Source: Candidatus Eiseniibacteriota bacterium (GTDB lineage Bacteria > Eisenbacteria > RBG-16-71-46 > CAIMUX01 > VGJL01). From it: a DNA stretch of 64,000 nucleotides. Under the pieces are notes generated by a model. It was not told where the DNA came from and did not search any database. It worked only from the letters and a program-made list of their open reading frames with translations. Below, in pieces: positions 7,840 through 64,000 of this stretch (the first letter of the stretch is position 1; each line of letters opens with the position of its first letter). The DNA lies in assembly GCA_034679345.1 (NCBI GenBank), contig JAXDAY010000030.1, forward strand, positions 52,925 to 116,924, given 5' to 3'. Both the position numbers and the translations under genes were made by a program.

Positions 7840-7888
7840 GAGCAGATCGCCGCGGCCGCGCCGCGGAGGACGGAGCAGGACGCATCCG

Positions 7889-10213: not shown

Positions 10214-10293
10214 GCCGCTTTTCCGCCTCGCCGCTCTCCCGAGAATTGGTTAGGATCCGCTCGCGGACGGCGAGCCGTACGGGAGGTATCGAC

Positions 10294-10824: not shown

Positions 10825-10830
10825 GAAGCC

Positions 10831-13202: not shown

Positions 13203-13220
13203 GGCGCGTAGGGGGAGGGG

Positions 13221-13994: not shown

Positions 13995-14002
13995 GAGGAG
14001 AG

Positions 14003-15016
14003 ATGGAGCCCGTCCCGGTCGCGGTCGTGGGTTGCGGGCATCTCGGCACGTTCCACGCTCGCGTCTACTCGCGAGACCCCGCCTGCCGACTGATCGCCGT
14101 CGCCGACATCATCCCCGAGAGGGCCCAGAAGCTCGCCGCTGAGCTCGGCGTCGAGCCCCTGTACGACGCCTCCATGGTGATCGGCCGCGTCGCGGCGGCG
14201 AGCGTGGCCACGCCAACCCTCACCCACGAGGCGATCGCGGGGATGCTCCTCGCGCAGGGGGTCGACGTCCTGGTGGAGAAGCCGCTCGCCGCTGATCCGG
14301 AAGCCGGGGCTCGCATCGTCGCTGCGGCAAGAAACGCCGGACGCGTCCTCGGCGTGGGGCAGATCGAGCGGTGCAACCCCGCCTTCGTCGCAGCCCGCTC
14401 GGATCTGAAGTCCCCGCGCTTCATCGAATCGCACCGGCTGGCCAGTTTCGTGCCCCGGTCCCTCGATGTCGATGTCGTCCTGGATCTCATGATCCACGAC
14501 ATCGATCTCGTCCTCTCGCTCGCCGCCTCTCCCCTCGAGAGGCTTGACGCCATCGGGGTGCCGGTCATCACGCAGGCGGCCGACATCGCGAACGCGCGAC
14601 TCCGTTTCGGCGATGGCTCGGTGGCGAATCTCACGGCGAGCCGCGTCTCGGGGCAGCGGATGCGGAAGATCCGCTTCTTCGAGAGAAACCTCTATCTCTC
14701 CGTCGACCTCCAGAATCGAAGGCTCGAGCGCGTGCGGCTCACGCCCCTCTCAACGAGGGAGTCGCCCGAACCGGCCGCTCCGCCCGAGGCCTTGATGCTC
14801 GCCGCCCGCGGGCTCAGGCTCGACCGCGCGAGCGTCGAGATCACCGAAGGGGACGCGCTCGTCAGTCAGCTGGCCGCCTTCCTGGCGGCCGTCCGTGGCG
14901 AGGGGAGGCCGGCCGCGACGGGGGAGGAGGGACTGCGAAGCCTGGAGGTCGCCGTGCGCGTGCGTGAGGCCGTCGCCACGAGCCTGGCGCGCCTGGGGGA
15001 AGTCCGAGCGGGATGA
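14003..15016 (+). CDS. Gfo/Idh/MocA-family NAD(P)-dependent oxidoreductase (GnnA-like) placed between lpxA and lpxB
   Basis: Rossmann motif VAVVGCGHLGTFHA and an EKP motif (VLVEKPLAA); RBS AGGAGG 8 nt upstream of the ATG at 14003; the stop overlaps the lpxB start. Confidence 0.75.
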   Translation: MEPVPVAVVGCGHLGTFHARVYSRDPACRLIAVADIIPERAQKLAAELGVEPLYDASMVIGRVAAASVATPTLTHEAIAGMLLAQGVDVLVEKPLAADPEAGARIVAAARNAGRVLGVGQIERCNPAFVAARSDLKSPRFIESHRLASFVPRSLDVDVVLDLMIHDIDLVLSLAASPLERLDAIGVPVITQAADIANARLRFGDGSVANLTASRVSGQRMRKIRFFERNLYLSVDLQNRRLERVRLTPLSTRESPEPAAPPEALMLAARGLRLDRASVEITEGDALVSQLAAFLAAVRGEGRPAATGEEGLRSLEVAVRVREAVATSLARLGEVRAG

Positions 15017-16140
15017 GCCGCCTCTTCCTCGTCGCAGGAGAGGCCTCCGGGGACCTGCAGGGGGGGCTCCTCGCCGAGGCGCTCCGCTCGAAGGCTCCGG
15101 AAATCCACATCGAGGGGATCGGCGGCGAGGCGATGGAACGAGCCGGCGTCGCTCTCTTCCACCGCAACGATGAGATGGGTGTGACCGGGATCGTCGAGGT
15201 TGCGCGGCATCTTCCTCGCATCCTGCGGCTGCTGAACGCGGCGGCGCGGCGAATCGAAGAGTCAAAGTCCGAGGCGGCGATCCTGATCGACTATCCCGAT
15301 TTCAATCTGCGGCTCGCCGCCCGGCTTCGCCGACGCGGGATCAAGGTCATCTACTACATCTCGCCCCAGCTCTGGGCCTGGCGCAGGGGAAGGATCGAGA
15401 CGATCCGCCGCACGGTCGCTCGAATGATCGTCATCTTCCCCTTCGAGGAGGCCCTTTACCGGGAGGCCGGCATCCCCGTGAGCTACGTCGGGCATCCCCT
15501 CGTGGAACGGGTTCGACCATCCAGACCCAGGCCGGAGATCCGAGCGGAGCTTGGAGTGGGGGCCGGGGAGCGCTTGATCGTGCTGATGCCCGGAAGCCGA
15601 AGGAGCGAGATCTCCCGGATCGCGCCTGTGCTCGATGCCGCGCGCCAGCGTCTCTCGGGACGCCCGGGGCTCCGCTGGGCGCTTGCTCTCGCTCCGGGGA
15701 TCGAACGGGAGCTTCTGCCGGAGTCGATGCGATCGGATCCATCGATGCCGGCCCGCGCCGGGGCCACCTACGATCTTCTCGCCGCTTGCGATCTTGCCGT
15801 CGCGGCGTCGGGCACCGCCACCCTCGAGGCGGCGATCCTCGGCGCGCCGATGATCGTCGTCTACAAGATGCACCCGCTCACGTGGGAGATCGCGCGCCGT
15901 CTCGTGAAGGTGGAGCACGTCGCGATGGCGAACCTGGTGGCTGGGAAGCGCATCGTGCCCGAGCTCCTCCAGGGAGAGGCCGTGCCCGAACGCCTCGCTG
16001 ACGAGATCCTCCGCTTCCTCGACGATCCTGATCTGCTGCTGCGCACGCGAGAGGCTCTCCTCGAGGCGGCGGCGAAGCTGGGAGCGGGGGGAGCGAGCGG
16101 TCGCGCCGCCGAGGCGGTCCTGGAGGAGATCGCGCGGTGA
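15013..16140 (+). CDS. lpxB: Lipid-A-disaccharide synthase LpxB
   Basis: N-terminal LFLVAGEASGDLQGG, typical of LpxB (GT19); 375 aa. Confidence 0.9.
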   Translation: MSRLFLVAGEASGDLQGGLLAEALRSKAPEIHIEGIGGEAMERAGVALFHRNDEMGVTGIVEVARHLPRILRLLNAAARRIEESKSEAAILIDYPDFNLRLAARLRRRGIKVIYYISPQLWAWRRGRIETIRRTVARMIVIFPFEEALYREAGIPVSYVGHPLVERVRPSRPRPEIRAELGVGAGERLIVLMPGSRRSEISRIAPVLDAARQRLSGRPGLRWALALAPGIERELLPESMRSDPSMPARAGATYDLLAACDLAVAASGTATLEAAILGAPMIVVYKMHPLTWEIARRLVKVEHVAMANLVAGKRIVPELLQGEAVPERLADEILRFLDDPDLLLRTREALLEAAAKLGAGGASGRAAEAVLEEIAR

Positions 16141-31605: not shown

Positions 31606-32286
31606 ATGCGCTCGTTCGGTATTGGACTGCTCATCATTGTTCTCGCAGTGCTTGTCGCAGGACTGAGCCCGACCGCCTCTCAGGCGTATGTCGGGATGCT
31701 CTCGAGCGCCACCGGAGGAATCCTCGGAACGGGGAACTGGGTGCTTGGGGGAACGACGGCGATGGAGTGGACCGTCACCCAGAACCAGGACCTCACCTGG
31801 CACTACGACTACCTTCTGTCGCATCCGGATGGCGAGACGAGCCACATCCTTCTCGAGGTTTCGCCGACCTTCGGTTTGGACAACCTGCTCAATCCGGGGG
31901 GCGACTTTGGCGAGATCCTGCTCCAGACATGGACGGATCAAGAGGGGAACCCGAATCTTCCGGACATCCTGTATGGAATCAAGTTCAACGAGACCTCCGG
32001 TACCGCGACGCACATCTACTTCGACAGCGACCGCGCGCCGATGTGGGGCGATTTCTATGCGAAGGATGGAAATTCGGGGGGCCAAGGCGTCAACACCGCC
32101 TGGAACGCCGGCTTCACGCTCCCCGACTCCGATCCGATCACGGTCCCGCCGCATGACGGCAGCGAGATGAATCACATCCTGGTGCCCGACACGCAGGTGA
32201 ATCCGATCCCGGAGCCGATGACCCTCCTCCTTCTGAGTGGCGGCCTCCTTGCGGGGGCCCTGGCGCATCGTCGCCGCCGGGCGTAG
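31606..32286 (+). CDS. PEP-CTERM sorting-domain protein (putative exosortase substrate)
   Basis: N-terminal signal peptide; the C-terminal tripartite sorting signal PIPEP-MTLLLLSGGLLAGALA-HRRRRA at the very C-terminus. Confidence 0.8.
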   Translation: MRSFGIGLLIIVLAVLVAGLSPTASQAYVGMLSSATGGILGTGNWVLGGTTAMEWTVTQNQDLTWHYDYLLSHPDGETSHILLEVSPTFGLDNLLNPGGDFGEILLQTWTDQEGNPNLPDILYGIKFNETSGTATHIYFDSDRAPMWGDFYAKDGNSGGQGVNTAWNAGFTLPDSDPITVPPHDGSEMNHILVPDTQVNPIPEPMTLLLLSGGLLAGALAHRRRRA

Positions 32287-48184: not shown

Positions 48185-49615
48185 TCAGGGCGCCGGCGTT
48201 CCGACGACCTCCCCGCGACGCGCGTAGAGCTTCATTCGATACCGGAGCTTGTCTCGAGTGGTCTGGAGCAGCTCGGCCGCGCGAGTCTGATTGCCGCCGC
48301 TCGCCTCCACGGCGCGCTCGATGAGCCCGCGCTCGATCTGCTCGATCCAATCCTCGAATGGGATTCCCGAAGCTTCCATCCGCCCCTCCACCAGCACGGA
48401 GCGGAGCGACTCGAGAATCCCGGTCTCCAGGGGGCGCGATCCCGCCTCGACGCCGAGCTTCAGGTGGTGGACGTCGATCTCCTCGCCGTCTTCCAGGAGG
48501 ATCGTCCGCTCGAAGAGGTTGCGAAGCTCGCGGATGTTCCCCGGCCACGCGTAGTCCTGCAGGAGAGCCATCGCCGATGGGGTGACCCTACGGAAGCGCT
48601 TGCGGAAGGTCTGGTTGAACTGGCGCATATAGTGCTCGGCCAGCAGGGGGATGTCCTCGTGGCGCTCGCGCAGCGCGGGCATCCGGATCGGCACGACCAT
48701 GAGCCGGTAGTAGAGATCTTCGCGGAAGCGTCCTTCGGCGACCATTTTCGAGAGATCCTGGTTGGTCGCCGATATGATCCGCACCTGGACGTTGAGGTCC
48801 CGGGTCCCGCCGACCCGGCGGAACGACATGCTCTCGAGCACCTTCAAGAGCTTCACCTGCAAGTTCGTGCTCATCTCCCCGATCTCATCCAGGAAGAGAG
48901 AGCCTCGATCGGCGAGCTCCAGGAGGCCCTGCTTGCGGGCGCGCGCATCGGTGAAGGCGCCCTTCTCGTGTCCGAAGAGCTCCGTTTCCAGGAGCTCCCT
49001 CGGGATCGCCGCGCAGTTGATCTCGAGAAAGGGTCCCTCCGCGAGAGGCCCCATATCATGGATGTAGTGGGCGATCACCTGCTTGCCCGTCCCGCTCTCC
49101 CCCTGGATCAGAACGCTCGTCGTGTCGCTGGCGGCGACCTTCTCCGCGATCTCGTAGACGGCTCGCACAGCCTTCGAGGTCCCGCGCACGAAGTCCTGCG
49201 CGTAGCGCTCCTTCTCGCGGCGGCGCCGGTGGGTCAACTCCCGCACGACGCGCGCCGACTCCAGGGCCTTCGACGCGAGGACCCGGATCTCCTCGAGCTC
49301 GAAGGGCTTCGTGATGAAGTCGTATGCCCCCGCCTTCATGGCCGCCACCGCGGTCTGGATCTCGCCGTAGGCGGTCATGATGATGACCGGACGGTCCGGC
49401 TCCCGCTGACGCAGCTCATCCAGGAGTGTGAGTCCCAGGCCGTCCGGAAGGCGGATGTCGAGGAGGACCAAATCGGCCTCCTCCTGGTTGAGCTTCTCCC
49501 ATGCCTCGGCGATCGACCCTGCGGCGAGCACGGTGTAGCCGTCCTCCGCGAAGGATCGCGTCAGGAAGTGCCGGAGCGATTCCTGGTCTTCGACGATCAG
49601 GATCGTGGCTGCCAT
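48185..49615 (-). CDS. Sigma-54-dependent response regulator (NtrC family: REC plus AAA+ plus Fis-type HTH)
   Basis: REC domain (ILIVEDQESLR...DLVLLDIRLPDG); AAA+ Walker A GESGTGKQ; GAFTDA sigma-54 interaction motif; C-terminal HTH (NQTRAAELLQTTRDKLRYRM). The internal start MAATILIV is preferred over the ORF-track start. Confidence 0.9.
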   Translation of the reverse strand: MAATILIVEDQESLRHFLTRSFAEDGYTVLAAGSIAEAWEKLNQEEADLVLLDIRLPDGLGLTLLDELRQREPDRPVIIMTAYGEIQTAVAAMKAGAYDFITKPFELEEIRVLASKALESARVVRELTHRRRREKERYAQDFVRGTSKAVRAVYEIAEKVAASDTTSVLIQGESGTGKQVIAHYIHDMGPLAEGPFLEINCAAIPRELLETELFGHEKGAFTDARARKQGLLELADRGSLFLDEIGEMSTNLQVKLLKVLESMSFRRVGGTRDLNVQVRIISATNQDLSKMVAEGRFREDLYYRLMVVPIRMPALRERHEDIPLLAEHYMRQFNQTFRKRFRRVTPSAMALLQDYAWPGNIRELRNLFERTILLEDGEEIDVHHLKLGVEAGSRPLETGILESLRSVLVEGRMEASGIPFEDWIEQIERGLIERAVEASGGNQTRAAELLQTTRDKLRYRMKLYARRGEVVGTPAP

Positions 49616-51378
49616 TCGAGTTCCCCCCATCCCTGCGCGAGGGGAATGCGGATCGCCATGACGGTCCCCCCCTCCGGCGCAGTCTCGGCGCTCAGCGTTC
49701 CTTCGTGCTGCCGCACGATGCTGTGGCTGACATAAAGGCCCAACCCGGTCCCCCCTCTCTTGGTCGAGAAGAAGGGCTCGAAGATATGTTTGAGCTGTTC
49801 GGCGGGGATGCCCGGGCCCGAGTCGCGCACCCAGATCCGGATCTCCCCTTCCTCCGGCGCGACTCCGCGCTCCCATCCGATCTCCACTGCCGCCCCCGTG
49901 GGCGAAGCCTCCACGGCGTTTCGCGCCAGGTTGACGAGGACCTGCAACATTCGCTCCTCGTCGAGGACGCCGGTCATCGGACGGCTTGCCTCCTCATCCG
50001 GCGGCAGGAGGCGAAGCGTCACTTCCCGCTCGTCGGCCTGGGGCTCGACGGCTCTCCAGGCTCGCTGGATCAAGGTGGCGATGCCGGTCCTGCGGAGCTC
50101 AAGGGGGCGTGCCTGGGCGGGCGCCAGCAGATCCCGCACGATCCGGTCGAGGCGATGGACTTCCGATCGCAGGATCCGAACTTCTTCAGCCCGGTCGGCT
50201 GGAATCGAGGAGCTCAGATACTCGATGCCCGTGCCGATCGCGGCGAGCGGATTGCGGATCTCGTGCGCCACGGCCGAAGCGAATCGTCCGAGCGCCGCCA
50301 GCCGGTCCAGACGCCGGATCTCCTCCTCCATCGCCCGCAGTGGCCGCAAATCGCTGATCGTGACAACGAGGCCCCCGGAATCCGGGCCCTCCTCGGCGAG
50401 CGGGACGATCTGCGCGGTGATCGGAATCTTCGACCCGCGCGCCAGGATCGCCGCTTCCTCCGGCGGGCGACGCTCCAGCCGATGCAGCCCAGCGCGGCAG
50501 AGCTCAGCGAGCTTCGGCGCGTGCGCGGAGAGGGCCGAGAGCCCCTTTCCGAGCAGGGAACGGTCAAGATCGAGAAGCTCTCCAGCCGCCCGGTTCATCG
50601 CCGTGATGCGCCCGGTCGCGTCAACCGCGAGGAGTCCGTCGCCCATCGCCTCGAGAAGGCACTCGCGGAATCGCGTCTCTCGGGCGGCGCGCCGCTGCTG
50701 CCTGACGCTCTGGAGCAGCGTCGCCGCCTGGAAGGCGATTTGCCCGACTTCCAGCGGGTCGCTCCCCGAGCCCTGGCAACCGCCGGGGCGGATCGCCAGA
50801 AGGCCCATCACGGCCCCCGAAGCGGTTTCGCCCTCGTTGGCCGCCTCTCCCGCCGCGAGGAGCGGCATGATGAGAGGCAGGGGCGATGGGGATCCCTCCG
50901 GTCCAGTGCTGTCCTCCGAAGCGGTGATCGCCTTGCCTCCGAGGGCCTCCTCCCAGACCGTTCCGCGCAGCGACTCGGCGGGCCAGTGGATCCTCTCGCT
51001 CAAACCGCGGCCGATTCCGCGAGTTCGGTACCCGCGCAGGCCTCCCCCGTCGATCCGCGTGAGGACGGCGACCTCGGGAATCCCATAGGCGTGCCCCAAG
51101 TAGACGCTGATCGTGCGGAGGATCTTCTCCTCATCCGGTTCTCGAAGGAGCGTCTCCGTGAGCTCCCGCAGTCCCGCAAGCCGCACGTTCTGCTCGATCA
51201 GCTGCCGCTGCTTGCGCTCGAGCAGATCGAGGAGGGCGTGGCAGGTCTCCGACAGATCGATCTCGCGCCCGGGGGCATGGAGCTCGGGCACGAGCGCCCC
51301 CAACTCGTTCAGCCGGGTGGTCAGCGCGGGGCGCAGCGGAAGTGGATCGGGGGTGGCGTCGGCGCCTCCCAAGGCCAA
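49597..51378 (-). CDS. Sensor histidine kinase (GAF/PAS-like sensor plus HisKA plus HATPase_c), apparently cytoplasmic
   Basis: H-box ASAVAHEIRNPL; N, G1 and G2 boxes (LVNLARNAVEA...DSGPGI...GGTGLGL); no convincing TM segment; overlaps the response-regulator gene. Confidence 0.85.
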   Translation of the reverse strand: MALGGADATPDPLPLRPALTTRLNELGALVPELHAPGREIDLSETCHALLDLLERKQRQLIEQNVRLAGLRELTETLLREPDEEKILRTISVYLGHAYGIPEVAVLTRIDGGGLRGYRTRGIGRGLSERIHWPAESLRGTVWEEALGGKAITASEDSTGPEGSPSPLPLIMPLLAAGEAANEGETASGAVMGLLAIRPGGCQGSGSDPLEVGQIAFQAATLLQSVRQQRRAARETRFRECLLEAMGDGLLAVDATGRITAMNRAAGELLDLDRSLLGKGLSALSAHAPKLAELCRAGLHRLERRPPEEAAILARGSKIPITAQIVPLAEEGPDSGGLVVTISDLRPLRAMEEEIRRLDRLAALGRFASAVAHEIRNPLAAIGTGIEYLSSSIPADRAEEVRILRSEVHRLDRIVRDLLAPAQARPLELRRTGIATLIQRAWRAVEPQADEREVTLRLLPPDEEASRPMTGVLDEERMLQVLVNLARNAVEASPTGAAVEIGWERGVAPEEGEIRIWVRDSGPGIPAEQLKHIFEPFFSTKRGGTGLGLYVSHSIVRQHEGTLSAETAPEGGTVMAIRIPLAQGWGELEWQPRS

Positions 51379-52603: not shown

Positions 52604-52650
52604 AATCAGCGTGCCGAAGGAATCGGCGCGCCGAAGGGATCAGCGCGCCG
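52604..52650. repeat. About 2.5 copies of an 18-bp tandem direct repeat ATCAGCG(T/C)GCCGAAGG(A/G)
   Basis: Visible directly: atcagcgtgccgaagga / atcggcgcgccgaaggg / atcagcgcgccgg. It lies in the 130-bp gap upstream of the epimerase/HK/RR transcription unit and abuts the stop codon of the upstream outer-membrane gene. Confidence 0.35.
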
Positions 52651-53563
52651 GCAGGAGCACGGAGAGGGAGAAGTGGTGAAGCTCCCCGGTTTCTTCGTCG
52701 GGGGCGAAGGCGTAAGCGAGCTCGAGTCCCCGGGTCCCGATGGCGAGACCCGCGCGCGGCCGAAAGCCGAGCTGTGGATCGTTGGAGTCATAGGCAGCTC
52801 CACCGAGAAGGGAGATCCCCCCGGGGCCGTGGAAGCGCCCTCCCCCGAAGACGATCGGAACCTCCCCCTCCCGGAGCACGGAGTGGATCTCGAGCCGCGC
52901 CAGACGACCGATGGGGCGGGACGCGCCGAGCGTGAACTCGGTCGGGATCGGATAGCGCCCCGACGGGCCCACCGCATCCGCTCCGAGATTCCGCGCTCCC
53001 CCGCCAATCACCGCGCCCAGGAAGTCGACCTCGAGACCGCAGTCGAAGCCCACGCCCGTGATCGCCGACTCCCCACCGTGGAGATAGAGCCAGCGCGCCC
53101 CCAGCCCTACCCGAAGCCCCGGCAGGACGGAGCGTCCCCACCCGGCTCCCACGGCGAGCTCGATCGGTTGGAACGATCCCAGAGTCGCGCCGGCGGCGTC
53201 GTAAGCCGGGAGGCTCCCGGCATGGACGGCGGACACGTCCACTCCGATTCCCCCCAGAGAGGTCGCGATGCTGCCGGTGAGCGACTCGAGGGCCAAACCG
53301 GACTGCCAGCTCTGATGTCCCGCGGCCGCCGCAGCCCGTTCCGCGCGGGCCAGTCCGGCGGGATTCGATCTTGTGGCCGCGGCGGGATCGGTCCCGACGG
53401 CCGGGAGCCCCCCGGAGGCCGTCTGTGTCGCCGTGAGAGGCCGCGTGGCTGAGAGAAACGCCAGAGTCGGGCCAGTGGCCCCCGAGGGGGCCGGGAGGGC
53501 CCCAAAAAGCCCTAGGACGAGGATCGGCGCAAGATGGGCCCGGCGAGGGAAGGGGGTTCTCAT
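52640..53563 (-). CDS. Hypothetical Gly-rich outer-membrane beta-barrel protein (PorV/FadL-like topology)
   Basis: Signal peptide MRTPFPRRAHLAPILVLGLFGALPAPSGA; alternating Gly/hydrophobic strands; no family confidently recognised. Confidence 0.5.
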   Translation of the reverse strand: MRTPFPRRAHLAPILVLGLFGALPAPSGATGPTLAFLSATRPLTATQTASGGLPAVGTDPAAATRSNPAGLARAERAAAAAGHQSWQSGLALESLTGSIATSLGGIGVDVSAVHAGSLPAYDAAGATLGSFQPIELAVGAGWGRSVLPGLRVGLGARWLYLHGGESAITGVGFDCGLEVDFLGAVIGGGARNLGADAVGPSGRYPIPTEFTLGASRPIGRLARLEIHSVLREGEVPIVFGGGRFHGPGGISLLGGAAYDSNDPQLGFRPRAGLAIGTRGLELAYAFAPDEETGELHHFSLSVLLPAR

Positions 53564-56294: not shown

Positions 56295-57905
56295 ATGAGC
56301 TCGAAGCGTCTGCTCCTTGTCACCGCCGGGTGCATCCTCTTGGCAGGAATCCTGGGAAGCGCCCTGTTCCTGCGAAGCGGACACGCATCGGGGCGGACCG
56401 TCTACACGCAACTTCAGGTCCTCACCGAGGTGCTCGGGCTCGTCAGCGACAACTACGTCGAGAAGACGAATGGAGAGGATCTCATCGACGGGGCGATCCG
56501 GGGAATGCTCGAGCAGCTCGATCCCCACTCGAACTATCTCGATCCCGAGCGATTTCGCCGGATGCAAGAGCGCAACCGAGGCTCCTACTACGGGATTGGC
56601 GTCTCATTCGCCATCGTGGACGGGGACCTGACCGTGATATCTCCGATCGCCGGCACCCCGTCCGACAAGCTCGGCATCCGCCCCGGGGATGTGATCGCCA
56701 AGATCAACGGCGAGTCGGCCAAGGGCATCAAGGAGGAGGAGGTCTTCGAGAAGCTGCGCGGCGAGCGTGGCACGATCGTCCATGTCTCGATCCGCCGCCC
56801 CGGCGAGACCGATTTGCTCGAGTTCGACATCGTGCGTGACGAGATCCCGATCTATAGCGTCTCGGCGAGCTTCATGCTGCAACCCGGCGTGGGCTACGTC
56901 TACCTCAACCGCTTCTCCGCGACGACGAGCACCGAGCTGGAGGATGCGCTCCAATCGCTCGCCGATCAGGGGATGGAGAAGCTGATCCTCGATCTCCGGG
57001 GCAACGCGGGCGGTTACCTCAATCAGGCGATCGAGATCACCGACAAGTTCCTCCCGGCCGGAAAGAAGGTCGTCTACACGATGGGCCGGCTTCCGGACGC
57101 CAACGAGGAGTACTACTCGACCGGCAAGGGCCGGCACACCCAGGCGCCGATCGTGATTCTCTTGAACCACGGCAGCGCGAGCGCGTCGGAGATCGTCGCA
57201 GGCGCGCTCCAGGACTGGGACCGCGCGCTCCTGGCCGGCGAGCGAAGCTTCGGCAAGGGCCTCGTCCAGCGCCAGTATCCCCTCAAGAACGGCGGCGCCC
57301 TCCTCCTCACCGTTGCGCGCTACTACACCCCCAGCGGGAGGCTCATCCAGCGCGACTACAGCGATCGCGACCGCTATCTCGAGGAGACCGCGGAGGAGAT
57401 CGACGAGGAGGCGTCCAGCGACACGACCGCCGCGATGAACGAGGAGTTCAAGACCGCCGGCGGGAGGACGGTCTATGGAGGCGGCGGGATCCAGCCGGAT
57501 GTCAAGCTCACATCAAGGCTTCGAGCGACGCGCACGCAGGGTCAGCTCGGCAACGCCTACTTCGACTTCGCCAACGCCTACATCGGCGAGTCGAAGCCCG
57601 ACCTCGGCGACCTGGAATCGTTCCGCAGGAATTATGTCGTCGGAGACGACCTCGTTCGCCGCTTCGAGAGCTTCCTCGCCGAGAAGAAGATCTCCTACGA
57701 GCCCGACAGCCTCAGGGCCGAGATCGATCTCGTGCGCTTGGGCATCAAGCGGGAGATGGCGCGGAACGTCTGGGGCGAAGCGGGACGGTGGGCGGTGACG
57801 ATCGACTTCGATCCGCAGGTCTCCGAGGCCTTGACGCTCCTGCCGCAGGCCGAGCTCATGGCGCGCAAGGAGCCGGTCGGAGATTGGCGGACTCGCTCCC
57901 GCTGA
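56295..57905 (+). CDS. ctpA: Carboxyl-terminal processing (tail-specific) protease, S41 family
   Basis: Signal peptide; PDZ domain; S41 catalytic region GNAGGYL...GSASASEIVAGALQD; RBS AAGGGAG upstream of the ATG at 56295. The ORF-track start at 56100 is too far upstream. Confidence 0.85.
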   Translation: MSSKRLLLVTAGCILLAGILGSALFLRSGHASGRTVYTQLQVLTEVLGLVSDNYVEKTNGEDLIDGAIRGMLEQLDPHSNYLDPERFRRMQERNRGSYYGIGVSFAIVDGDLTVISPIAGTPSDKLGIRPGDVIAKINGESAKGIKEEEVFEKLRGERGTIVHVSIRRPGETDLLEFDIVRDEIPIYSVSASFMLQPGVGYVYLNRFSATTSTELEDALQSLADQGMEKLILDLRGNAGGYLNQAIEITDKFLPAGKKVVYTMGRLPDANEEYYSTGKGRHTQAPIVILLNHGSASASEIVAGALQDWDRALLAGERSFGKGLVQRQYPLKNGGALLLTVARYYTPSGRLIQRDYSDRDRYLEETAEEIDEEASSDTTAAMNEEFKTAGGRTVYGGGGIQPDVKLTSRLRATRTQGQLGNAYFDFANAYIGESKPDLGDLESFRRNYVVGDDLVRRFESFLAEKKISYEPDSLRAEIDLVRLGIKREMARNVWGEAGRWAVTIDFDPQVSEALTLLPQAELMARKEPVGDWRTRSR

Positions 57906-57999: not shown

Positions 58000-60498
58000 T
58001 CAGGGACTCTGGAGGCGCGCGGAGACGATGTTCGAATCGCTCGTCAGTGGGCTTCCACCGTCGATGTCGGCGTCCGCCACCACGACCTTGTAGAAGTAGT
58101 CCTGTTCGGGATCCCCGCCCGGCAGGAAGTCGGTGTAGCTCGTCTGCTCACGTCGGTCGAAGCTGGCCACCGTCTGGGTGATGGCGCCCGGAGAGGTCCC
58201 CCGCATGAGCCTGTAGGACGCGAAATCGGCGTCCGCGTTGCGCGTCCAGCTGAGCGAGATGCTCGCCGTCGTCGTCCCCCCGAGAGAGAGCGTCACCGGA
58301 GTCGGAGCGCGGTTCGCCGTGACGATCGATCGCTCGGATGAGCCCGTAGACCCTCCGGCGTCATCCCGGACGAAGACCCGGTAGTAGTAGCGCGTATTGT
58401 CGGTGAGATCCGCGTCCCGATAGGTGAGCGTCGAGATCAGATCGATCACACGGACGAGGGTGGAGTTCTCCCCCACCGCCGGAGAGGTGTCGCGATAGAT
58501 CCGATAGTTCTCGAAATCATGGACGCTCGATGCCGTCCAGGAGAGATCGAGGGTCGGAGTCTGCGCTCCCGCGACTTCCACGGGGGCGTTCAGGGTGACT
58601 GCCGGCGGGTCGGCGTTGTCGGTCGTGACCAGGATCTCATTGCTCGGGCTGGATTGGCCTCCTCGATCCCGGACGAACAGGCGGTAGTAGTAGTCGGTGT
58701 TCTCCCGCAGCCCGCTGTCGGTCCAGCGCGTTCGCTCGGCGTCCGTGATCGTCGTCACCAGCGTGGATCCTTCTCCGACGCCGGCGTTTTCGGAGCGGTG
58801 GAGCCTGTACTCGGCGAAATCGAGATCGCTGTTCCGGGACCAGGACAGCCCGATCGTCGTTTCTCCCGCCGGATCCGGGGCGCTCAGGGTCGAGGCGTCC
58901 GGATAGAGATCCTCGATGGTGGCGCTCACCTCATTGCTCCAGGCGCCCGCCCCCAGGAGATCCACCACCTCGATCCGGTAGTAGTAGGTCTTGCCCTCCT
59001 CGAGCTCGGAGCGGTCCTCATAGGTCGTGGTCGCCGCGTTGCGGATCTCGCTCAGGTTCCGGCGGTCGGGGTCGGTGTCTACACCCGCGCGCTCGCCGCG
59101 CACCACTCGGTAGAGCGCGAAGTCCGAGTCATGGTTCCGGCTCCAATCGAGACGGACCGATTCCTCGGTGATCCCATAGGGGCTCGCCAGAACGACCGCG
59201 ATCGGAGAATCGTTCGCCTGCGGCGCGCGCGAGACCTCATTGCTGTACGACCCGAAGCCGTCCGGATCGAGCAGCTGCACGGAATAGTAGTACTGGCGTC
59301 CCGGCTCCAGATCGCTGTCGGTGTGCTCCGTTTGCGACCGCGAGGTGAACTCCCGCACGAGGACGCGATCGCTGGCGGTGTCCACTCCAGGCGCTTCGGC
59401 GCGCAGGAGCCGGTAGGATCCGAACGGAATCCCCTCCGGGGCGCGCGACCAGCGAAGCGAGATGGACTCGGGGTCCGGACTGCCCGGCTCCTCCAGCGTC
59501 ACCGCCGGCGGGACCGAGTGGATCGTCAGCCGTCGATCAGCGGCGCGCGCCGGCGCCTGGTTCCCGGCTTCGTCCTGGAAGTGGCCGACGATCTCCGCGC
59601 CGATGAACTGGACGGCCGTCTCCGCGGGATAGAGAAGCGAGTAGACGCCGTCGCCCGGTTGCGCGTCGGGCGCGACGCCGTCGTCGCGCATCGTCCAGCG
59701 CTGCCCGCCGCGCGGAATCTCGACCTGCGCAAAGCCGGCGGGTTCGCCCGAGCTCAATCGCATCTCGATCTGCTCGCCCGGTTCGCGCGTGTCGGGGCCA
59801 TCGTACTCCAGGCTCAGGATCTCCGCGCGGGTGTCGACGCGGATCGCATCCGAGACGATCGAGGAGAGGTTGCCCGCCCCGTCAGCGAAGCGCGCGTAGG
59901 CCGTTCGAACGCCGTCCCCCTCGAGCAGGATCCAGGAGACGGTTTCTCCGAAACTCAGCGTCACGGCATCGGCCAGCGCCGGGTCGTTGGAGAGCAGGAT
60001 CGCCGTCGTGCCGTTCGGCGCCTCGGCGGAGATCAGGACCGCCCGGCTGGCGGTCACTTCGCGTCCCTCGGCGATGCTGATGGCGAACAGCCCGGGCGCG
60101 GCCGCGACCTCGGAGGAGCGGTCCCCTTCAAGCCCGTTCTTCAGCACGGCGCTCACCGAGAAGAGAGTCCCCGTCCCGTTGAGAAGTCCGGAGATCCGCT
60201 TCGGGCTCGCGACCGCCGAGTCGGCGAGCGAGAACTCCTCCGCGATTCCCGAGCGGCGATAGATCCGGTAGGAACGGATCTCTGCGGGCTCCCAATCGTC
60301 GGGCAGGGCCCAGCTAAGGGTGACCGCCCGATCCTCGATCTCGGCCCTCACTTCAGTCGGCACCGGCGGACGTTCCCCGCCGGTCGCGGGGTCCCGTGGA
60401 TTGCGGGTCGGGCCGAGGTCATGATCCTTCGAGCAGCCGCCGGCCGAGAGCAGCCCGATCGCCAGCAAAACAGGGATCGTGCGTGCGAGACGCATCAC
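58000..60498 (-). CDS. Large surface lipoprotein built from about 6 tandem fibronectin-type-III-like modules
   Basis: Lipobox LLSAGGCS. Repeated about 90-100-aa modules, each with W-S-R-N-x-D-x-D-F-x-x-Y-R ... Y-Y-Y-R-(I/L/V)-x-V-x-D ... S-N-E-V, for example LSWSRNSDLDFAEYRLHR, YYYRLFVRDRGGQSSPSNEI and YYYRVFVRDDAGGSTGSSE. A 4-nt overlap with the upstream PEGA-domain gene. Confidence 0.7.
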   Translation of the reverse strand: MMRLARTIPVLLAIGLLSAGGCSKDHDLGPTRNPRDPATGGERPPVPTEVRAEIEDRAVTLSWALPDDWEPAEIRSYRIYRRSGIAEEFSLADSAVASPKRISGLLNGTGTLFSVSAVLKNGLEGDRSSEVAAAPGLFAISIAEGREVTASRAVLISAEAPNGTTAILLSNDPALADAVTLSFGETVSWILLEGDGVRTAYARFADGAGNLSSIVSDAIRVDTRAEILSLEYDGPDTREPGEQIEMRLSSGEPAGFAQVEIPRGGQRWTMRDDGVAPDAQPGDGVYSLLYPAETAVQFIGAEIVGHFQDEAGNQAPARAADRRLTIHSVPPAVTLEEPGSPDPESISLRWSRAPEGIPFGSYRLLRAEAPGVDTASDRVLVREFTSRSQTEHTDSDLEPGRQYYYSVQLLDPDGFGSYSNEVSRAPQANDSPIAVVLASPYGITEESVRLDWSRNHDSDFALYRVVRGERAGVDTDPDRRNLSEIRNAATTTYEDRSELEEGKTYYYRIEVVDLLGAGAWSNEVSATIEDLYPDASTLSAPDPAGETTIGLSWSRNSDLDFAEYRLHRSENAGVGEGSTLVTTITDAERTRWTDSGLRENTDYYYRLFVRDRGGQSSPSNEILVTTDNADPPAVTLNAPVEVAGAQTPTLDLSWTASSVHDFENYRIYRDTSPAVGENSTLVRVIDLISTLTYRDADLTDNTRYYYRVFVRDDAGGSTGSSERSIVTANRAPTPVTLSLGGTTTASISLSWTRNADADFASYRLMRGTSPGAITQTVASFDRREQTSYTDFLPGGDPEQDYFYKVVVADADIDGGSPLTSDSNIVSARLQSP

Positions 60499-61328
60499 CG
60501 CGATCCTCCCTTCGATCCTGAAAGGCTCAAGAGCAAGGCGACTCCATCGGCTCCGCGCGAGGCGATGCCGAGCCGCGGCCCTTCATCGCCCCATGGGGCG
60601 AAGTCCGCGAACGATCCCTCGGCCGGCTCCGGGAAGAAGAGCGCGGCGTCGAGGAGCGAGATGGCGTAGATCGCGCCCGTGGCCAGGAGCGCGACTTGAC
60701 GGCGGTCGTAGGCCCGGTCGGCGTCCCGCCGCTCGCGGTCCGCGCGGGCCCGGAGCGCGGGTAGCTCCTCGAGCCGATCCTCGCCGAAATAGGCGTTCCG
60801 TGCCGCTCTGTAGTCGTCGACCCGGTCCTGGTAGTCTTCCTCGGTCAGGGCGATGGCGATCCCGCCCGCGGCGGCTCCAAGCAGGAAGAGATATCCCTTG
60901 CCCCGCTCATCCGCGTAGAACTGACCCCAGCCCGGAACGAGGAGACTCCGGGCGGCCGCCTTCCAGGCCTGCTTGCGCGCGAGTTTCACGGTGAGCTCTC
61001 GGTCCTCGCCGGGGCGCAGATCGATCTCGCGGCTCCAGTCCTCGTAACCTTTCAGCTCGACTCGAACCTCGTACTTCCCCGCGATGTCGCGCTCGATCTC
61101 CCACGGAGTCGTGCCTCGCCAGCGGTGGACGCCTTCAAGAGTGACCATCGCTCCCGAGGGTTCCGACACCATCCGGAGTCGCGACTGCCGGACCGCCTCC
61201 GTGGTTTCTTCCGCGGGAGTCTGGCCGGCCGCGCCGGGGGCCAGCCCCACGACGAGAAACGCCGTGCACATGACGTACCAGGCCGACCGCCGCAGGGCCG
61301 CAGTCCCCTCGATCGATCGAGATCGCAT
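60495..61328 (-). CDS. PEGA-domain-containing secreted protein
   Basis: The likely start is the ATG at 61328 (MRSRSIEG...), 5 nt after AAGGAGGG; signal peptide; a PEGA-like beta-sandwich segment (GAMVTLEGVHRWRGTTPWEIERDIAGKYEVRVELKGYEDW); a C-terminal region with 2 predicted TM helices. Confidence 0.6.
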   Translation of the reverse strand: MRSRSIEGTAALRRSAWYVMCTAFLVVGLAPGAAGQTPAEETTEAVRQSRLRMVSEPSGAMVTLEGVHRWRGTTPWEIERDIAGKYEVRVELKGYEDWSREIDLRPGEDRELTVKLARKQAWKAAARSLLVPGWGQFYADERGKGYLFLLGAAAGGIAIALTEEDYQDRVDDYRAARNAYFGEDRLEELPALRARADRERRDADRAYDRRQVALLATGAIYAISLLDAALFFPEPAEGSFADFAPWGDEGPRLGIASRGADGVALLLSLSGSKGGSR

Positions 61329-61362: not shown

Positions 61363-62079
61363 TCAGGAATCCTTCTCCTCGTCGCCGCCGCGACTCTCGC
61401 GTTCGCTTCTCTCCTGTCCGCGGTCGCTCCAGTAGTCGGAGACCGCCGGCGGGTCGCTCGCCCGCAGGACCACTCCGATCGTACGACACAGGATCGCCAG
61501 GTCGAGTCGCAGTGAGATGCGTTCGAGGTACTCCACATCGAGGCGGATCCTCTCCTCCCACGTGAGCGACTTGCGCCCGCGCACCTGGGCGAGGCCGGTC
61601 AGTCCCGGCCGCAGCCTGAGGCGCTGGCGCTGGAACGCGTCGTACTGCCGCACCTGGTAGGCCAGCGTCGGCCTCGGCCCGACGAGGCTCATCTCGCCGC
61701 GCAGGACGTTCCAGAGCTGCGGCAGCTCATCGAGGCTCGTGCCTCGCAGGAACTTGCCGACGCGGGTCACTCGCGGGTCGTCCTCCAGGACGAGGACTCC
61801 GGTTCCCATCTCCGCCGCGCCGACGACCATCGTTCTGAACTTGAGGAGCCGGAACGGACGTCCCAGGAGCCCGATCCGCTCCTGCACGAAGAACGCGCCG
61901 CCCCGCGACTCGATGATGACGGCCAGCCCCGCGACGAGCAGGACGGGAGAGAGCGCGAGAAGGCCAATCGCGGCGGCCACGCGATCGAGGATCGGCTTCA
62001 CCCGCCGCGCATAGAGCCCCTCGGCCGGCGTCTCGGGGAGGACCCCGAGGTCAAGCCGCTCGCCTGAATCGTCTCTCAC
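61363..62079 (-). CDS. Undecaprenyl-phosphate sugar phosphotransferase (PglC/WbaP-C-terminal-type initiating sugar transferase)
   Basis: Single TM (AIGLLALSPVLLVAGLAVII) followed by the conserved SRGGAFFVQERIG...PFRLLKFRTM...DELPQLWNVLRGEMSLVGPRP core. The start is taken as the GTG at 62079 (8 nt after the aminotransferase stop); a TTG at 62091 is an alternative, and the ORF-track start at 62415 overlaps the upstream gene. Confidence 0.7.
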   Translation of the reverse strand: MRDDSGERLDLGVLPETPAEGLYARRVKPILDRVAAAIGLLALSPVLLVAGLAVIIESRGGAFFVQERIGLLGRPFRLLKFRTMVVGAAEMGTGVLVLEDDPRVTRVGKFLRGTSLDELPQLWNVLRGEMSLVGPRPTLAYQVRQYDAFQRQRLRLRPGLTGLAQVRGRKSLTWEERIRLDVEYLERISLRLDLAILCRTIGVVLRASDPPAVSDYWSDRGQERSERESRGGDEEKDS

Positions 62080-62087
62080 CGTCGCCC

Positions 62088-63269
62088 TCAAGACTTTCCC
62101 TTCAGCGCGGCGCGGACCTGCGGCGCCTCGGATTGAAGGCTCCGGACGGCTTCGACCACTCGATCGACCTCCCCGTCGCGCATGTGCGAGTAGAGCGGAA
62201 GGCATAGGACCTCGGCGCAGACGCGGTCGGTGTTGGGATAGCTCCCCTCGAGCCCCGGCAGGTGACGGAACCGCGATTGCCGGTGGAGCGGCGGATAGAA
62301 GTAGATCTTCGTGCGGATCTGATCCGCCTCGAGCGCCGAGCGGAGCTCCGCGTTCGTCAACCCAAAGGCCAATGCCTCGATCCGAACCGCGAAGTAGTTG
62401 TGCGTCGACCTGCAATTCTCGGCGATCCTCTGGAATCGCACCCCCGGAACGCCGGCGAGTCCGGAACGATAGCGCCGCACGATCGCATCGCGCCGCGCGA
62501 TGTGGGTCTCGGTCTGTTCGAGGCTGAACACGCCCAGCAGCGCGTGCAGCTCGCTCTGGCGCGCGTTGAGTCCTGCGAAGAGGCAGTCATAGTCCCCCGG
62601 GTTGCCGTAGTTGCGGGCGATCCGAAGCTCCCGCGCAAGCGACGCGTCTCTCGTCGCGACGAGGCCGCCTTCGCCCGATACCGTCACCTTCGTCGGCGCG
62701 AGGCTGAAGACCTCCGCCTCGGCGAAGCTCCCGGCCATCTTGTCTCCCACCCGGGTTCCGAGAGCGTGCGCCGCGTCGCTCAGCGCCTTCAGCCCGCGGC
62801 TGGAACGGAGTTGCTCGATGCCGTCCCAGTCGGGAGCGTTCCCGAAGATGTAGACGGGGAAGATCCCGCTGACGCCCGGCGACCATCGCCGCGCCGCGTC
62901 GATCGGGTCGATGTTGAAGCTCTCAGGGTCGCAGTCGACGAGGACCGGTTCGATCCCGTTCCACAGCAGAGCGTGGAGCGTGGCGGGAAAGGTGAAGGAC
63001 GGAAGCATGACCTTACCGGAGAGACCGAGCAGCTTCGCGACGAGGATGAGCCCGGAGGTGGCGTTTCCGAGGGCGACGACCTCGGGCACTCCGAGGTAGC
63101 CGGCCGCCGTCTCCTCGAGCCGCGCGACCCATCGGTCGTTCGTGAGCTGCCTCGATTCGAAGATCTCGCTCAAGGCCGAAGCATACCGATCGTAATCGGG
63201 AAGGGTCGGTTGGCTGATCGGAAGGACGGTCTGCGGGACAGCGCCCCCGAGTATCGCGGGTCGGCTCAT
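62088..63269 (-). CDS. DegT/DnrJ/EryC1/StrS-family PLP-dependent sugar aminotransferase
   Basis: Conserved PLP-Lys region (FSLAPTKVTVSGEGG); about 393 aa from the ATG at 63269, which is preceded by GAGGAGG; the ORF-track start at 63500 overlaps the ligase gene. Confidence 0.85.
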   Translation of the reverse strand: MSRPAILGGAVPQTVLPISQPTLPDYDRYASALSEIFESRQLTNDRWVARLEETAAGYLGVPEVVALGNATSGLILVAKLLGLSGKVMLPSFTFPATLHALLWNGIEPVLVDCDPESFNIDPIDAARRWSPGVSGIFPVYIFGNAPDWDGIEQLRSSRGLKALSDAAHALGTRVGDKMAGSFAEAEVFSLAPTKVTVSGEGGLVATRDASLARELRIARNYGNPGDYDCLFAGLNARQSELHALLGVFSLEQTETHIARRDAIVRRYRSGLAGVPGVRFQRIAENCRSTHNYFAVRIEALAFGLTNAELRSALEADQIRTKIYFYPPLHRQSRFRHLPGLEGSYPNTDRVCAEVLCLPLYSHMRDGEVDRVVEAVRSLQSEAPQVRAALKGKS

Positions 63270-64000
63270 GCCGGCACCTCCTCGGCGCTCGATTCGCGCG
63301 TGAGTCTCTCCTCGATCGCCACGACTCCCGAGAGGGCGAAGAAGTAGCCGCTCAATCCGAAGTCGAACAGGCGCTGCCCGAAGAGATTCGAGACCAGCAG
63401 GCAGCCGATGACCCCCTGGTACGCGCGTCCAAGCAAGGCGGTGCGCCCGCCGCGGCGCGTGAGCCGCGCTCCCATGCGCCAAGCCGAGACGAAGATCCAT
63501 AGCAGCAGCGCGAGCCCGGGGATTCCCATTTCACCGGCGACCTGGAGGTAGAGATTGTGGACATGCTTGTAGAGCCCGGCAGACAGACGAGTCGCCGTCA
63601 TCATGTTCCCGTAGCCGACCCCGATGATCGGGTTCTCCTCGATCACGCGCAGCGACTCCTTCCAGATGGTCAGGCGTCCCCCCGAGGTCTGATCAAGCCC
63701 ATCGGTCGTGTCGTCCGCCTCAGAGGTCTCCTCCACCGTGCTCGTGACCCGCTCCTTGACGAAGCTCGGCGCCCACAGGGCCCCGCTCCCCACGACAACG
63801 ACGAACAGGAGGATGCCGAGAATGCCCGTCCGGAGGGCCTGGGGCACCGCCGCGGCGAGGAAGCCGACATAGGCTCCCCGTGAGTTCGGAAGGAACATGC
63901 CGAGGGTGGTGATCAGCCCCGAGAAGAACGTGCCGAGGCGTCCAGCGCGGCGGAACGCGCCGGCGATCGAGAGGGCGAAGACTCCGGACATCGCAAGGAA
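63266..64000 (-). CDS. O-antigen-ligase-domain (Wzy_C) membrane protein, C-terminal part; the gene continues beyond the right window edge
   Basis: Wzy_C core motif (PIIGVGYGNMMTATRLSAGLYKHVHNLYLQVAGEMGIPGLALLLWIF) flanked by TM helices; the family includes WaaL ligases, Wzy polymerases and PglL/PilO O-oligosaccharyltransferases. Confidence 0.7.
   Translation of the reverse strand, partial: FLAMSGVFALSIAGAFRRAGRLGTFFSGLITTLGMFLPNSRGAYVGFLAAAVPQALRTGILGILLFVVVVGSGALWAPSFVKERVTSTVEETSEADDTTDGLDQTSGGRLTIWKESLRVIEENPIIGVGYGNMMTATRLSAGLYKHVHNLYLQVAGEMGIPGLALLLWIFVSAWRMGARLTRRGGRTALLGRAYQGVIGCLLVSNLFGQRLFDFGLSGYFFALSGVVAIEERLTRESSAEEVPA

Follow-up and report, generated by a model that had tools for sequence, protein, structure and literature searches.

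A predicted lipid-anchored chain of FN3 and Ig-like domains, encoded with a PEGA/DUF5683 membrane protein in an exosortase-type exopolysaccharide locus of Candidatus Eisenbacteria

Introduction

Many bacteria of sediments and soils, and many that form flocs, carry exosortase/PEP-CTERM systems, and how cargo and polysaccharide are handled once the exosortase has acted is not understood. Accessories of these systems include EpsI, PrsK, PrsR and the TPR lipoprotein PrsT. The founding PEP-CTERM paper (Haft et al. 2006, PMC1569441) mentions neither fibronectin nor PEGA. Tandem arrays of FN3 domains (PF00041) are found in C. thermocellum CbhA (PDB 3pdd/3pe9) and in titin/RPTP ectodomains, and repeats of the bacterial Ig-like (BIg) type build the giant Ca2+-binding adhesins represented by SiiE (PDB 2yn3), a T1SS substrate with 53 BIg domains. 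The SusE/SusF-type glycan-binding surface lipoproteins of Bacteroidota belong to SusC/D utilisation loci.

Here we describe a lipoprotein that combines FN3 and BIg domains and is encoded in an exosortase-type locus. Its gene lies in a 64,000-nucleotide stretch of DNA, which was analysed as a whole and is called the window below.

Results

The gene and the fold of its product

The lipoprotein gene is ORF 58000..60498 on the minus strand. It encodes 832 amino acids (aa) from a GTG start, or 831 from an ATG one codon downstream. The GC3 of this frame (0.84-0.85) favours it over the antisense shadow ORF. A search between the convergent gene ends revealed no intrinsic terminator. An earlier note on this DNA had described an 832-aa ORF with a lipobox and FN3-like repeats; all three are real.

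The product consists of eight beta-sandwich domains: one FN3 domain, two bacterial Ig-like domains (mid-A and mid-B) and then five more FN3 domains (Table 1). At roughly 3.5 nm per domain, the chain would make a rod of about 25-30 nm if extended. The fold itself is ordinary for FN3/Ig repeats. Pfam fn3 (PF00041) matches five stretches with 107.3 bits against a cutoff of 25, and profile searches of the PDB match the chain, R1 included, to FN3 domains of titin, RPTP and fibronectin. Structure prediction, which the earlier note had proposed as a check, was run on the chain with AlphaFold (AF2) and gave an all-beta, FN3/Ig-like model with a pLDDT of 90 and the seven-strand beta-sandwich of FN3. 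The best Foldseek matches of the model are FN3/Ig chains (E 1e-27 to 1e-14), among them titin, contactin and gp130. The FN3 beta-sandwich fold claimed earlier is thus borne out by Pfam, PDB profiles, the AF2 model and Foldseek.

Sequence searches of the PDB with the middle region gave no match. Mid-A is modelled with a pLDDT of 94 and holds the invariant columns G196, G209 and D222 of the homolog alignment; giant proteins carry this domain in 8-52 tandem copies, which score as Big_7/Big_13. Mid-B contains a choice-of-anchor X motif (NCBIfam NF041940, 35 bits, above the cutoff of 25, at aa 269-295), and choice-of-anchor X is also the name that NCBI gives to one distant homolog. E252, D309 and N313 are further invariant residues. 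No definition of the domain was found in the 'choice-of-anchor' literature, and no NCBIfam equivalog model matches the lipoprotein.

Table 1. Features of the lipoprotein gene and its upstream neighbours. Coordinates are window positions; residue numbers refer to the 832-aa product.
Feature	Coordinates	Strand	Remarks
Stop codon of lipoprotein gene	58000-58002	-	
Five tandem FN3	58003..59514	-	R2 329-427, R3 428-529, R4 530-626, R5 627-728, R6 729-832 (aa)
Mid-B (aa 226-328), Ig-like	59515..59823	-	Choice-of-anchor X motif DDGxxPDxxxGDGVY (aa 269-295) and FxDEAGN
Mid-A (aa 136-225), bacterial Ig-like domain	59824..60093	-	Motif GDGxKTVYARFxDxxGNxS
FN3-1 (R1, aa 45-135)	60094..60366	-	Titin and RPTP FN3 PDB profile matches, residues 40-139
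Tether (aa 23-44)	60367..60432	-	Starts C-S-K-D-H-x-L, holds N-P-R-D-P
Signal peptide with lipobox (aa 1-22, ...LLSAGG-C22)	60433..60498	-	Alternative ATG start at 60495
Coupling junction	60493..60511	-	GGAGG 60505-60509; partner stop TGA 60495-60497 overlaps GTG 60496-60498 or ATG 60493-60495
Partner gene, PEGA + DUF5683 membrane protein, 277 aa	60495..61328	-	Pfam PEGA 47.7 bits, DUF5683 42.1 bits
Upstream operon genes within window	61363..64000	-	Bac_transf 61363-62079; DegT aminotransferase 62088-63269; Wzy_C 63266 to beyond window end (Pfam)

Repeats and their age

The six repeat strings quoted in the earlier note all occur in the protein (residues 61, 348, 450, 551, 652 and 749), as do the YYY/YFY motifs (residues 403, 505, 603, 704 and 801). 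R2-R6 share 31-44% mutual identity (Smith-Waterman z 12-30) at a spacing of 97-102 aa. R1 is a divergent FN3 domain, without the YYY motif and 21-24% identical to R2-R6 (z 2-3.6). Six FN3 domains are therefore present, in line with the array of about six repeats proposed earlier, but R1 and R2 lie about 190 aa apart with the two non-FN3 beta-sandwich domains (aa 136-328) between them, so that the chain departs from simple six-fold periodicity.

The suggestion that the repeats be compared at the DNA level led to a negative answer. TRF finds no repeat and the codon-threaded identity is 44-52%, which rules out a recent duplication. Individual repeats are nearer to their orthologs (up to 82% identity) than to their paralogs (at most 44%), and the duplications are thus ancient. 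R5 is the best-conserved C-terminal FN3 repeat across orthologs.

Lipobox, tether and location

The n-region, h-region and lipobox of a lipoprotein signal are present (MMRLARTIPVLLAIGLLSAGG-C22, with small residues at positions -1 and -2), and the protein is a predicted signal peptidase II substrate. Cys22 is invariant in 29 homologs, which upholds the N-terminal lipobox of the earlier note, and the boxes of most orthologs are of the canonical LAGC/AAGC form. AF2 models residues 8-19 as a helix and the stretch after them as disordered, with pLDDT below 50 at residues 20-32, and 'CSKDH' is conserved among orthologs.

The residues at +2 to +6 (S-K-D-H-D) do not follow the Asp+2 retention rule of E. 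coli. The Bacteroidota surface-export signal (LES, C-X-K-(D/E)2-X) is matched only in part by C-S-K-D-H-D, in which K+3 and D+4 fit and H+5 does not; according to the LES paper on surface export in C. canimorsus, KD alone is insufficient. BamA is encoded in the same window and scores above its cutoff, and a LolCE-like and a LolD-like protein both score just below their NCBIfam cutoffs. The lipoprotein is not itself PEP-CTERM cargo: its C-terminus, ...SDSNIVSARLQSP, is the last FN3 strand and contains no TM segment. A regular-expression scan of the window ORFs for the PEP-CTERM signal found it only in ORF 31606-32286.

A conserved partner gene in an exosortase-type locus

The lipoprotein gene is a component of an exosortase/EPS locus by synteny. 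Read from upstream, the order is Wzz/GNVR, EpsH, EpsI, hyp278, TPR, GAF/PrsK-like, Wzy_C, DegT, Bac_transf, PEGA/DUF5683 and lipoprotein; the genes from Wzz/GNVR to GAF/PrsK-like lie beyond the window. Coordinates of the upstream genes were mapped from locus L016, which equals the window over 16,001 identical bases. EpsH of this locus reaches 199.8 bits against XrtA and is accepted by the exosortase subfamily model; EpsI scores above its own cutoff.

In 21 of the 22 loci examined, a PEGA/DUF5683 gene immediately precedes the lipoprotein gene and usually overlaps it; the overlapping stop/start arrangement of Table 1 recurs in L016, L024, L025 and L026. The pairing holds at 60%, 49%, 38% and 32-37% identity and in all 13 independent metagenome loci with upstream DNA. 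(The metagenome scan used the closer of two alignments.) Other exosortase-type EPS genes are present at most loci (hyp278, TPR, PrsK-like sensor, sigma-54 regulator, Wzy_C and Bac_transf), with EpsH/EpsI where there is enough upstream DNA. EpsH/EpsI lie within 10 kb in L016/L017, P0004, L018 and L022 and in the metagenome loci L031, L032, L036 and L038. L019 has EpsH alone, and there PEP-CTERM proteins flank the pair; in L042 no EpsH was found at E<1e-5 in 10 kb of upstream DNA. The link between fold and exosortase is not strict, since a paralog in Eisenbacteria, P0023, lies outside any exosortase locus and adjoins genes for GH53, alpha-amylase and FG-GAP proteins. Literature searches on DUF5683, the lipoprotein/partner pair, exosortase with PEGA or FN3, and SaeA FN3 returned nothing relevant.

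These contexts bear on the adhesin or S-layer role suggested in the earlier note. As a free-standing protein of that kind, the chain would be exported to the cell surface and would mediate attachment independently of exosortase, its operon position being incidental. A generic non-catalytic repeat protein of the surface or envelope is compatible with all our findings. Pairing in 21 of 22 contexts across 32-100% identity, mostly amid exosortase-type EPS genes, makes a coincidence of operon position hard to accept. Pfam and NCBIfam also show no distal 'tip' binding domain and no recognised domain for S-layer anchoring or lattice formation, such as SLH, although S-layer proteins are too diverse for the latter absence to decide. 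We regard a free-standing adhesin as unlikely. The enzyme scaffold named in the same proposal fails, since there is no catalytic domain and the matches to CbhB and to the purple-acid-phosphatase N-terminus cover only the FN3 modules of those proteins.

The position of the pair among regulatory genes allows another reading, in which it would be an envelope sensor or regulatory accessory, informing the PrsK-like kinase and the sigma-54 regulator of PEP-CTERM/EPS genes about the condition of matrix or envelope and itself handling neither polymer nor cargo. In the majority of distant variants (L024, L026, L030, L031, L035-L038 and L041) the pair comes directly after TPR, PrsK-like HK and sigma-54 RR genes, the HK and RR follow the pair in L019 and L025, and PrsT sets a precedent for a lipoprotein within this regulatory trio. 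In the window's own clade, however, the pair follows Wzy_C, DegT and Bac_transf and the PrsK-like protein is without a kinase domain. Neither member of the pair has a signalling domain in Pfam, and an FN3 tail of variable length is more typical of spacers and adhesins. A sensory role is possible, though we hold it to be doubtful.

Conservation within the family

FN3-1, mid-A and mid-B are found in 29 of 29 homologs and contain most of the invariant columns, forming a constant core. The number of C-terminal FN3 domains ranges from 1 to 5 and the total number of domains from 4 to 8. It is the lipid-proximal end of the chain that is conserved and not the distal end, which again argues against an adhesin. 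The best match in a scan of genome contigs was a Latescibacterota MAG at 40% identity.

Variation in length also bears on the idea of a strut that spans the periplasm as part of the polysaccharide export apparatus and joins the outer membrane to the Wzy/PCP machinery of the inner one. Fully extended, the chain would be about as long as the periplasm is wide; its partner is an inner-membrane protein, and the locus encodes Wzz/GNVR and Wzy_C. A chain of 4 to 8 domains is, however, a poor fit to a fixed-distance ruler, and the lipoprotein has no similarity to the OPX/Wza or PCP families. Such a strut seems to us improbable.

O-glycosylation motif

The earlier note likened recurrent tripeptides to the D-(S/T)-(A/I/L/V/M/T) O-glycosylation motif of Bacteroidota. 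The tripeptides are not recurrent: the motif is matched by DSA93 and DTA373 alone, 'DSI' is absent from the protein and 'DSD' is outside the motif. Two motifs were observed against 4.6 expected from the composition of the lipoprotein. The count against background that had been proposed as a check gave 0.24 per 100 aa, compared with 0.26 in 35 other window ORFs, and over 29 family members 131 were observed against 132.5 expected. The sequon is thus at chance level in the protein, the window ORFs and the homologs, and the Bacteroidota-type reading was rejected. The host is also not a member of Bacteroidota but Candidatus Eisenbacteria: all named UvrC relatives (49-66% identity) bear that name, which NCBI files under 'Bacteria candidate phyla' rather than Bacteroidota or the FCB group. 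What the note called adjacent glycosylation genes is the last part of a Wzy-type exopolysaccharide/exosortase operon.

A glycoprotein substrate, modified at this motif by the neighbouring Wzy_C/O-ligase-like enzyme, would be in keeping with the best NCBIfam match of the adjacent Wzy_C ('putative O-glycosylation ligase, exosortase A system-associated'), yet that match reaches 60.9 bits, far under the cutoff of 188. A D-S-hydrophobic site at residue 93 recurs by position in 18 of 29 homologs. Against these stand the lack of enrichment, the failure of two of the four tripeptides and a host outside the phylum for which the motif was described. We consider glycosylation of this kind very improbable, and a tempting but unsupported annotation is removed.

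Discussion

Reasoning from guilt by association, we suggest that the lipoprotein is probably a non-catalytic envelope rod which, together with its membrane partner, helps to assemble or retain an exosortase-dependent matrix. Its gene and that of the partner would form a conserved, translationally coupled pair, in which the partner is a putative inner-membrane protein that has its PEGA domain in the periplasm and DUF5683 as a helical anchor. The pair may serve specifically as an accessory to an XrtA-like exosortase (PEP-CTERM) and Wzy-type exopolysaccharide system of Eisenbacteria, Zixibacteria and their relatives. The constant, lipid-proximal three-domain core may dock to the partner or the machinery, while the acidic FN3 tail of variable length would point away from the membrane and bind or space polysaccharide or PEP-CTERM cargo. 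The net effect would be an EPS-protein matrix assembled or retained on the cell. The analysis establishes the fold, lipobox, domain architecture, conservation pattern and synteny, and from these the docking, the ligand binding and the membrane and face occupied are inferred. It brought out no carbohydrate- or cargo-binding site, and the beta-sandwich CBM matches are generic.

We raise more tentatively that the DUF5683/PEGA protein and the FN3/BIg lipoprotein could together make up a structural module, obligatory but so far unrecognised, in an FCB-allied type of exosortase system. If so, the module could, for example, be what takes up PEP-CTERM cargo or the growing polysaccharide at the inner membrane and positions it across the envelope, and a step of exosortase-dependent matrix assembly without known machinery would gain a candidate. 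The value of the gene is as a marker: a two-gene module, fixed beside exosortase genes across several candidate phyla and unnamed by curated models, that offers a concrete, testable candidate for the missing envelope step.

Comparison with known systems

The lipoprotein shares with FN3 arrays the fold, the tandem arrangement and the FN3 hallmarks, namely the B-strand Trp, C-strand Tyr and F-strand Tyr corner that make up the W...Y-R...Y-Y-Y signature of the earlier note. Unlike those arrays it has an N-terminal lipid anchor and no catalytic or receptor domain, two BIg domains interrupt the chain, and the family adds a 'D-F-x-x-Y-R' motif of its own. SiiE is far richer in BIg domains than the two found here (15% identity), and our candidate is a lipoprotein rather than a T1SS substrate. 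The SusE/SusF-type proteins resemble it by description, as lipid-anchored beta-sandwich chains from a polysaccharide-related locus; theirs are utilisation loci, whereas this one is a biosynthesis/exosortase locus, and the strict export signal K-(D/E)2 is replaced here by K-D-H. With the PEP-CTERM/exosortase accessories it shares membership of an exosortase/EPS neighbourhood. It is not among the described exosortase components, and its family is seen in Eisenbacteria, Zixibacteria and Latescibacterota-type loci instead of Proteobacteria. Like PrsT it is a lipoprotein of unknown role, and the two differ in fold.

The lipoprotein gene and its repeats

The minus-strand frame at 58000-60498 is a genuine ORF of 832 aa from a GTG start, or 831 aa from the ATG that is the next codon, and its third-position GC content of 0.84-0.85 is typical for genes of the window (65-70% GC). 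An antisense ORF over almost the whole gene (58519-60669, plus strand, 716 aa) is a high-GC shadow and not a gene. An earlier note had described about six FN3-like repeats behind a lipobox, and all six repeat strings quoted there are found in the translation. Pfam fn3 matches five stretches (107 bits, cutoff 25), and a PDB profile search with the family matches the FN3 domains of titin, RPTPs and fibronectin, the divergent first repeat (R1) included. The C-terminal repeats R2-R6 have LxW motifs at residues 348, 450, 551, 652 and 749, a spacing of 97-102 aa, and share 31-44% identity (Smith-Waterman z 12-30). R1 (residues 45-135) is 21-24% identical to them (z 2-3.6) and lacks the YYY motif. 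The recurring W...Y-R...YYY signature consists mostly of standard FN3 core residues (Trp of strand B, Tyr of strand C and the Tyr corner of strand F), with D-F-x-x-Y-R as its family-specific part. TRF detected no DNA-level repetition in the gene, and the codon-threaded repeats are 44-52% identical.

Domain architecture and predicted structure

The six-repeat description is right in essence, and its reading as an FN3 lipoprotein stands, but it overlooks about 190 non-FN3 residues between R1 and R2 (136-328). These form two segments, mid-A (136-225) and mid-B (226-328). With a profile of this region, matches were obtained to about 19,500 cluster representatives, led by giant proteins with 8-52 tandem mid-A copies; three of the shorter matches score as Big_7/Big_13. 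The NCBIfam 'choice-of-anchor X' domain scores 35 bits at residues 269-295 (cutoff 25). An AlphaFold model built with a 29-sequence alignment is confidently all-beta (mean pLDDT 90), with eight beta-sandwich domains and disorder confined to residues 1-32; its pTM of 0.41 is expected for a beads-on-a-string chain. Foldseek with the full-length chain returned only FN3/Ig chains (titin, contactin, Robo, gp130 and the GhpA neck). Neither Pfam nor NCBIfam detected a catalytic family, and no NCBIfam equivalog model matched.

Conservation of the family

The homologs recovered comprise 17 full-length orthologs (47-100% identity, 822-842 aa) and 12 more distant proteins (473-946 aa). Named distant homologs are from Eisenbacteria and Zixibacteria, and a 40% relative is in a Latescibacterota MAG. 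The lipobox Cys22 is invariant, and mid-A and mid-B hold most of the remaining invariant columns (G196, G209, D222, I227, G241, E252, D309, N313 and A315). Every homolog retains the lipobox, R1, mid-A and mid-B, while the C-terminal FN3 copies vary from 1 to 5. Each repeat is nearer to its positional ortholog (up to 82% for R5) than to its paralogs (≤44%), which points to ancient duplications and to a separate constraint on every copy.

The mature protein (58003-60432) has the lipidated residue as its sole cysteine. It is very strongly acidic, with a net charge of -53 (126 Asp and Glu against 73 Lys and Arg), and poor in Lys (0.6%, against 8.4% Arg). Its BIg tandem resembles SiiE; given this likeness, the acidity and the conserved Asp/Glu of the tandem, Ca2+ binding is possible.

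The proposed O-glycosylation motif and the host

Recurrent tripeptides had been likened to the D-(S/T)-(A/I/L/V/M/T) motif of Bacteroidota. The protein has two such sites (DSA93 and DTA373) against 4.6 expected from its own composition, and 95% of shuffled sequences have two or more. Of the tripeptides cited, DSI is absent and DSD lies outside the motif. At 0.24 sites per 100 aa the protein has the same density as 35 other window ORFs (0.26), and the 29 homologs together have 131 sites against 132.5 expected; the site at residue 93 keeps its position in 18 of 29 sequences. This lack of enrichment is the outcome that the earlier note had itself named as refuting the proposal. Where relatives of the window's UvrC at 49-66% identity carry a name, it is always Candidatus Eisenbacteria, a phylum placed by NCBI in 'Bacteria candidate phyla'. 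The Bacteroidota-type glycosylation reading fails, and that the lipoprotein is a glycoprotein substrate is the least probable of the readings weighed here.

Gene neighborhood

The lipoprotein gene closes a minus-strand series in which Wzy_C, DegT aminotransferase, Bac_transf and PEGA/DUF5683 genes precede it in that order. The TGA of the PEGA/DUF5683 gene overlaps the GTG/ATG start, with GGAGG 6-9 nt upstream. The operon beyond the window end was read from Logan contig L016, which shares 16,001 bases with the window without a mismatch. Its upstream genes run from Wzz/GNVR through exosortase EpsH, EpsI, a membrane protein (hyp278), a TPR protein and a PrsK-like sensor to Wzy_C. EpsH, at 199.8 bits on the XrtA model (cutoff 208), is above threshold on the exosortase subfamily model; EpsI is above its own cutoff.

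Features of the window and of related contigs
Feature	Location	Strand	Remarks
S41 C-terminal processing protease with PDZ	window 56295-57905	+	prc subfamily above cutoff; convergent, directly 3' of lipoprotein gene
hyp278, 278-aa polytopic membrane protein	L016 1947-2783		no Pfam or NCBIfam match
PrsK-like sensor, 481 aa	L016 4328-5773		matches PrsK profile positions 4-456 of 679 (N-terminal membrane/GAF part); without kinase domain
ORF, 226 aa	window 31606-32286	+	ends NPIPEPMTLLLLSGGLLAGALAHRRRRA (PEP motif, TM helix, Arg cluster)
PAS histidine kinase and sigma-54 response regulator	window 48185-51378	-	downstream of sugar genes
Envelope-biogenesis cluster	window 1821-16140	+	LolCE-like and LolD-like just below NCBIfam cutoffs; BamA above cutoff
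307-aa secreted protein	window 52640-53563	-	among nucleotide-sugar genes; no Pfam match; PorV/PorQ-family 53.7 bits (cutoff 90)
Paralog, 633 aa (Eisenbacteria MAG GCA_043806645.1)	L021 10001-11902		between FG-GAP/ASPIC/FlgD_ig protein and GH53 galactanase, near alpha-amylase

hyp278 recurs in most exosortase-type loci examined (BLAST E 1e-7 to 1e-66; custom HMM in 10 metagenome loci) and is another uncurated member of the exosortase system. Pfam PEP-CTERM matches the extreme C-terminus of the 226-aa ORF over positions 1-24 of 24, below threshold (16.7 vs 20.7 bits); its product is probably an exosortase cargo, encoded some 26 kb away from the exosortase/EPS locus. The S41 protease gene has the same place beside Eisenbacteria-type orthologs (L018, L022, L032 and L033) and does not keep it in distant loci. 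Tail processing is a possible functional link between this protease and the lipoprotein.

In distant loci the homolog of the PrsK-like sensor is a full GAF-HATPase kinase adjoining a sigma-54 regulator. On PrsR, the model for PEP-CTERM-box regulators, the sigma-54 regulator of the window reaches 372 bits (cutoff 503); its assignment is ambiguous because AtoC and NtrC score higher. That the lipoprotein and its partner are a sensor accessory of PrsK/PrsR is a minor possibility, and we consider it rather unlikely.

Pairing with the DUF5683 protein

The window-like arrangement also surrounds orthologs at 60%, 49% and 38% identity. Distant members (32-37%; Zixibacteria-type and other loci) have a DUF5683-family gene directly upstream that overlaps the lipoprotein start, and unannotated upstream genes are partner homologs by BLAST. 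Neighbors in distant loci include a PrsK-like kinase, sigma-54 regulator, TPR protein, hyp278 and Bac_transf, and L019 additionally has an exosortase and two PEP-CTERM proteins. An independent metagenome sample was scored with HMMs built from the neighbor genes: the partner is immediately upstream in 13/13 family loci having upstream DNA, and EpsH and EpsI lie within 10 kb upstream in four (L031, L032, L036 and L038). Overall the pair occurs in 21 of 22 contexts, beside which an independent adhesin or S-layer-like protein, roles raised in the earlier note, appears improbable. The sole exception is the 633-aa paralog, outside any exosortase locus; its neighbors hint that the same architecture also serves glycan-degradation contexts.

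Localization and interpretation

The window also encodes LptE, and apparent LpxD, LpxC/FabZ, LpxA and LpxB genes were read from sequence only within the envelope-biogenesis cluster. With the LolCE-like, LolD-like and BamA proteins, these indicate that the cell is diderm and that lipoprotein trafficking is probably present. The 307-aa protein may be an outer-membrane barrel.

Lipoproteins in E. coli follow the Asp+2 retention rule, which the S-K-D-H directly after Cys, conserved among orthologs, does not match. It fits only partially the Bacteroidota surface-export signal C-X-K-(D/E)2-X, for which KD alone is insufficient according to the paper describing it. The lipoprotein is constant at its lipid-proximal end, and alpha-helices anchor the partner; most simply, then, the two would share the inner membrane and the FN3 tail would point outward from it. 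That the rod serves the export apparatus as a periplasmic strut is very improbable. The best-supported reading, toward which we lean modestly, is a non-catalytic lipid-anchored rod that, with its translationally coupled inner-membrane PEGA/DUF5683 partner, is accessory to an exosortase-type EPS system.

Comparison with known systems

No literature was found on DUF5683 or on its pairing with an FN3/BIg lipoprotein. The paper that first described the PEP-CTERM/EpsH system (Haft et al. 2006, PMC1569441) names EpsH, EpsI, PrsK, PrsR and PrsT and mentions neither fibronectin nor PEGA. The protein is a new, uncharacterized multi-FN3/BIg lipoprotein, and the consistency with which a DUF5683 protein accompanies it in exosortase loci gives comparative genomics a testable lead of modest interest.
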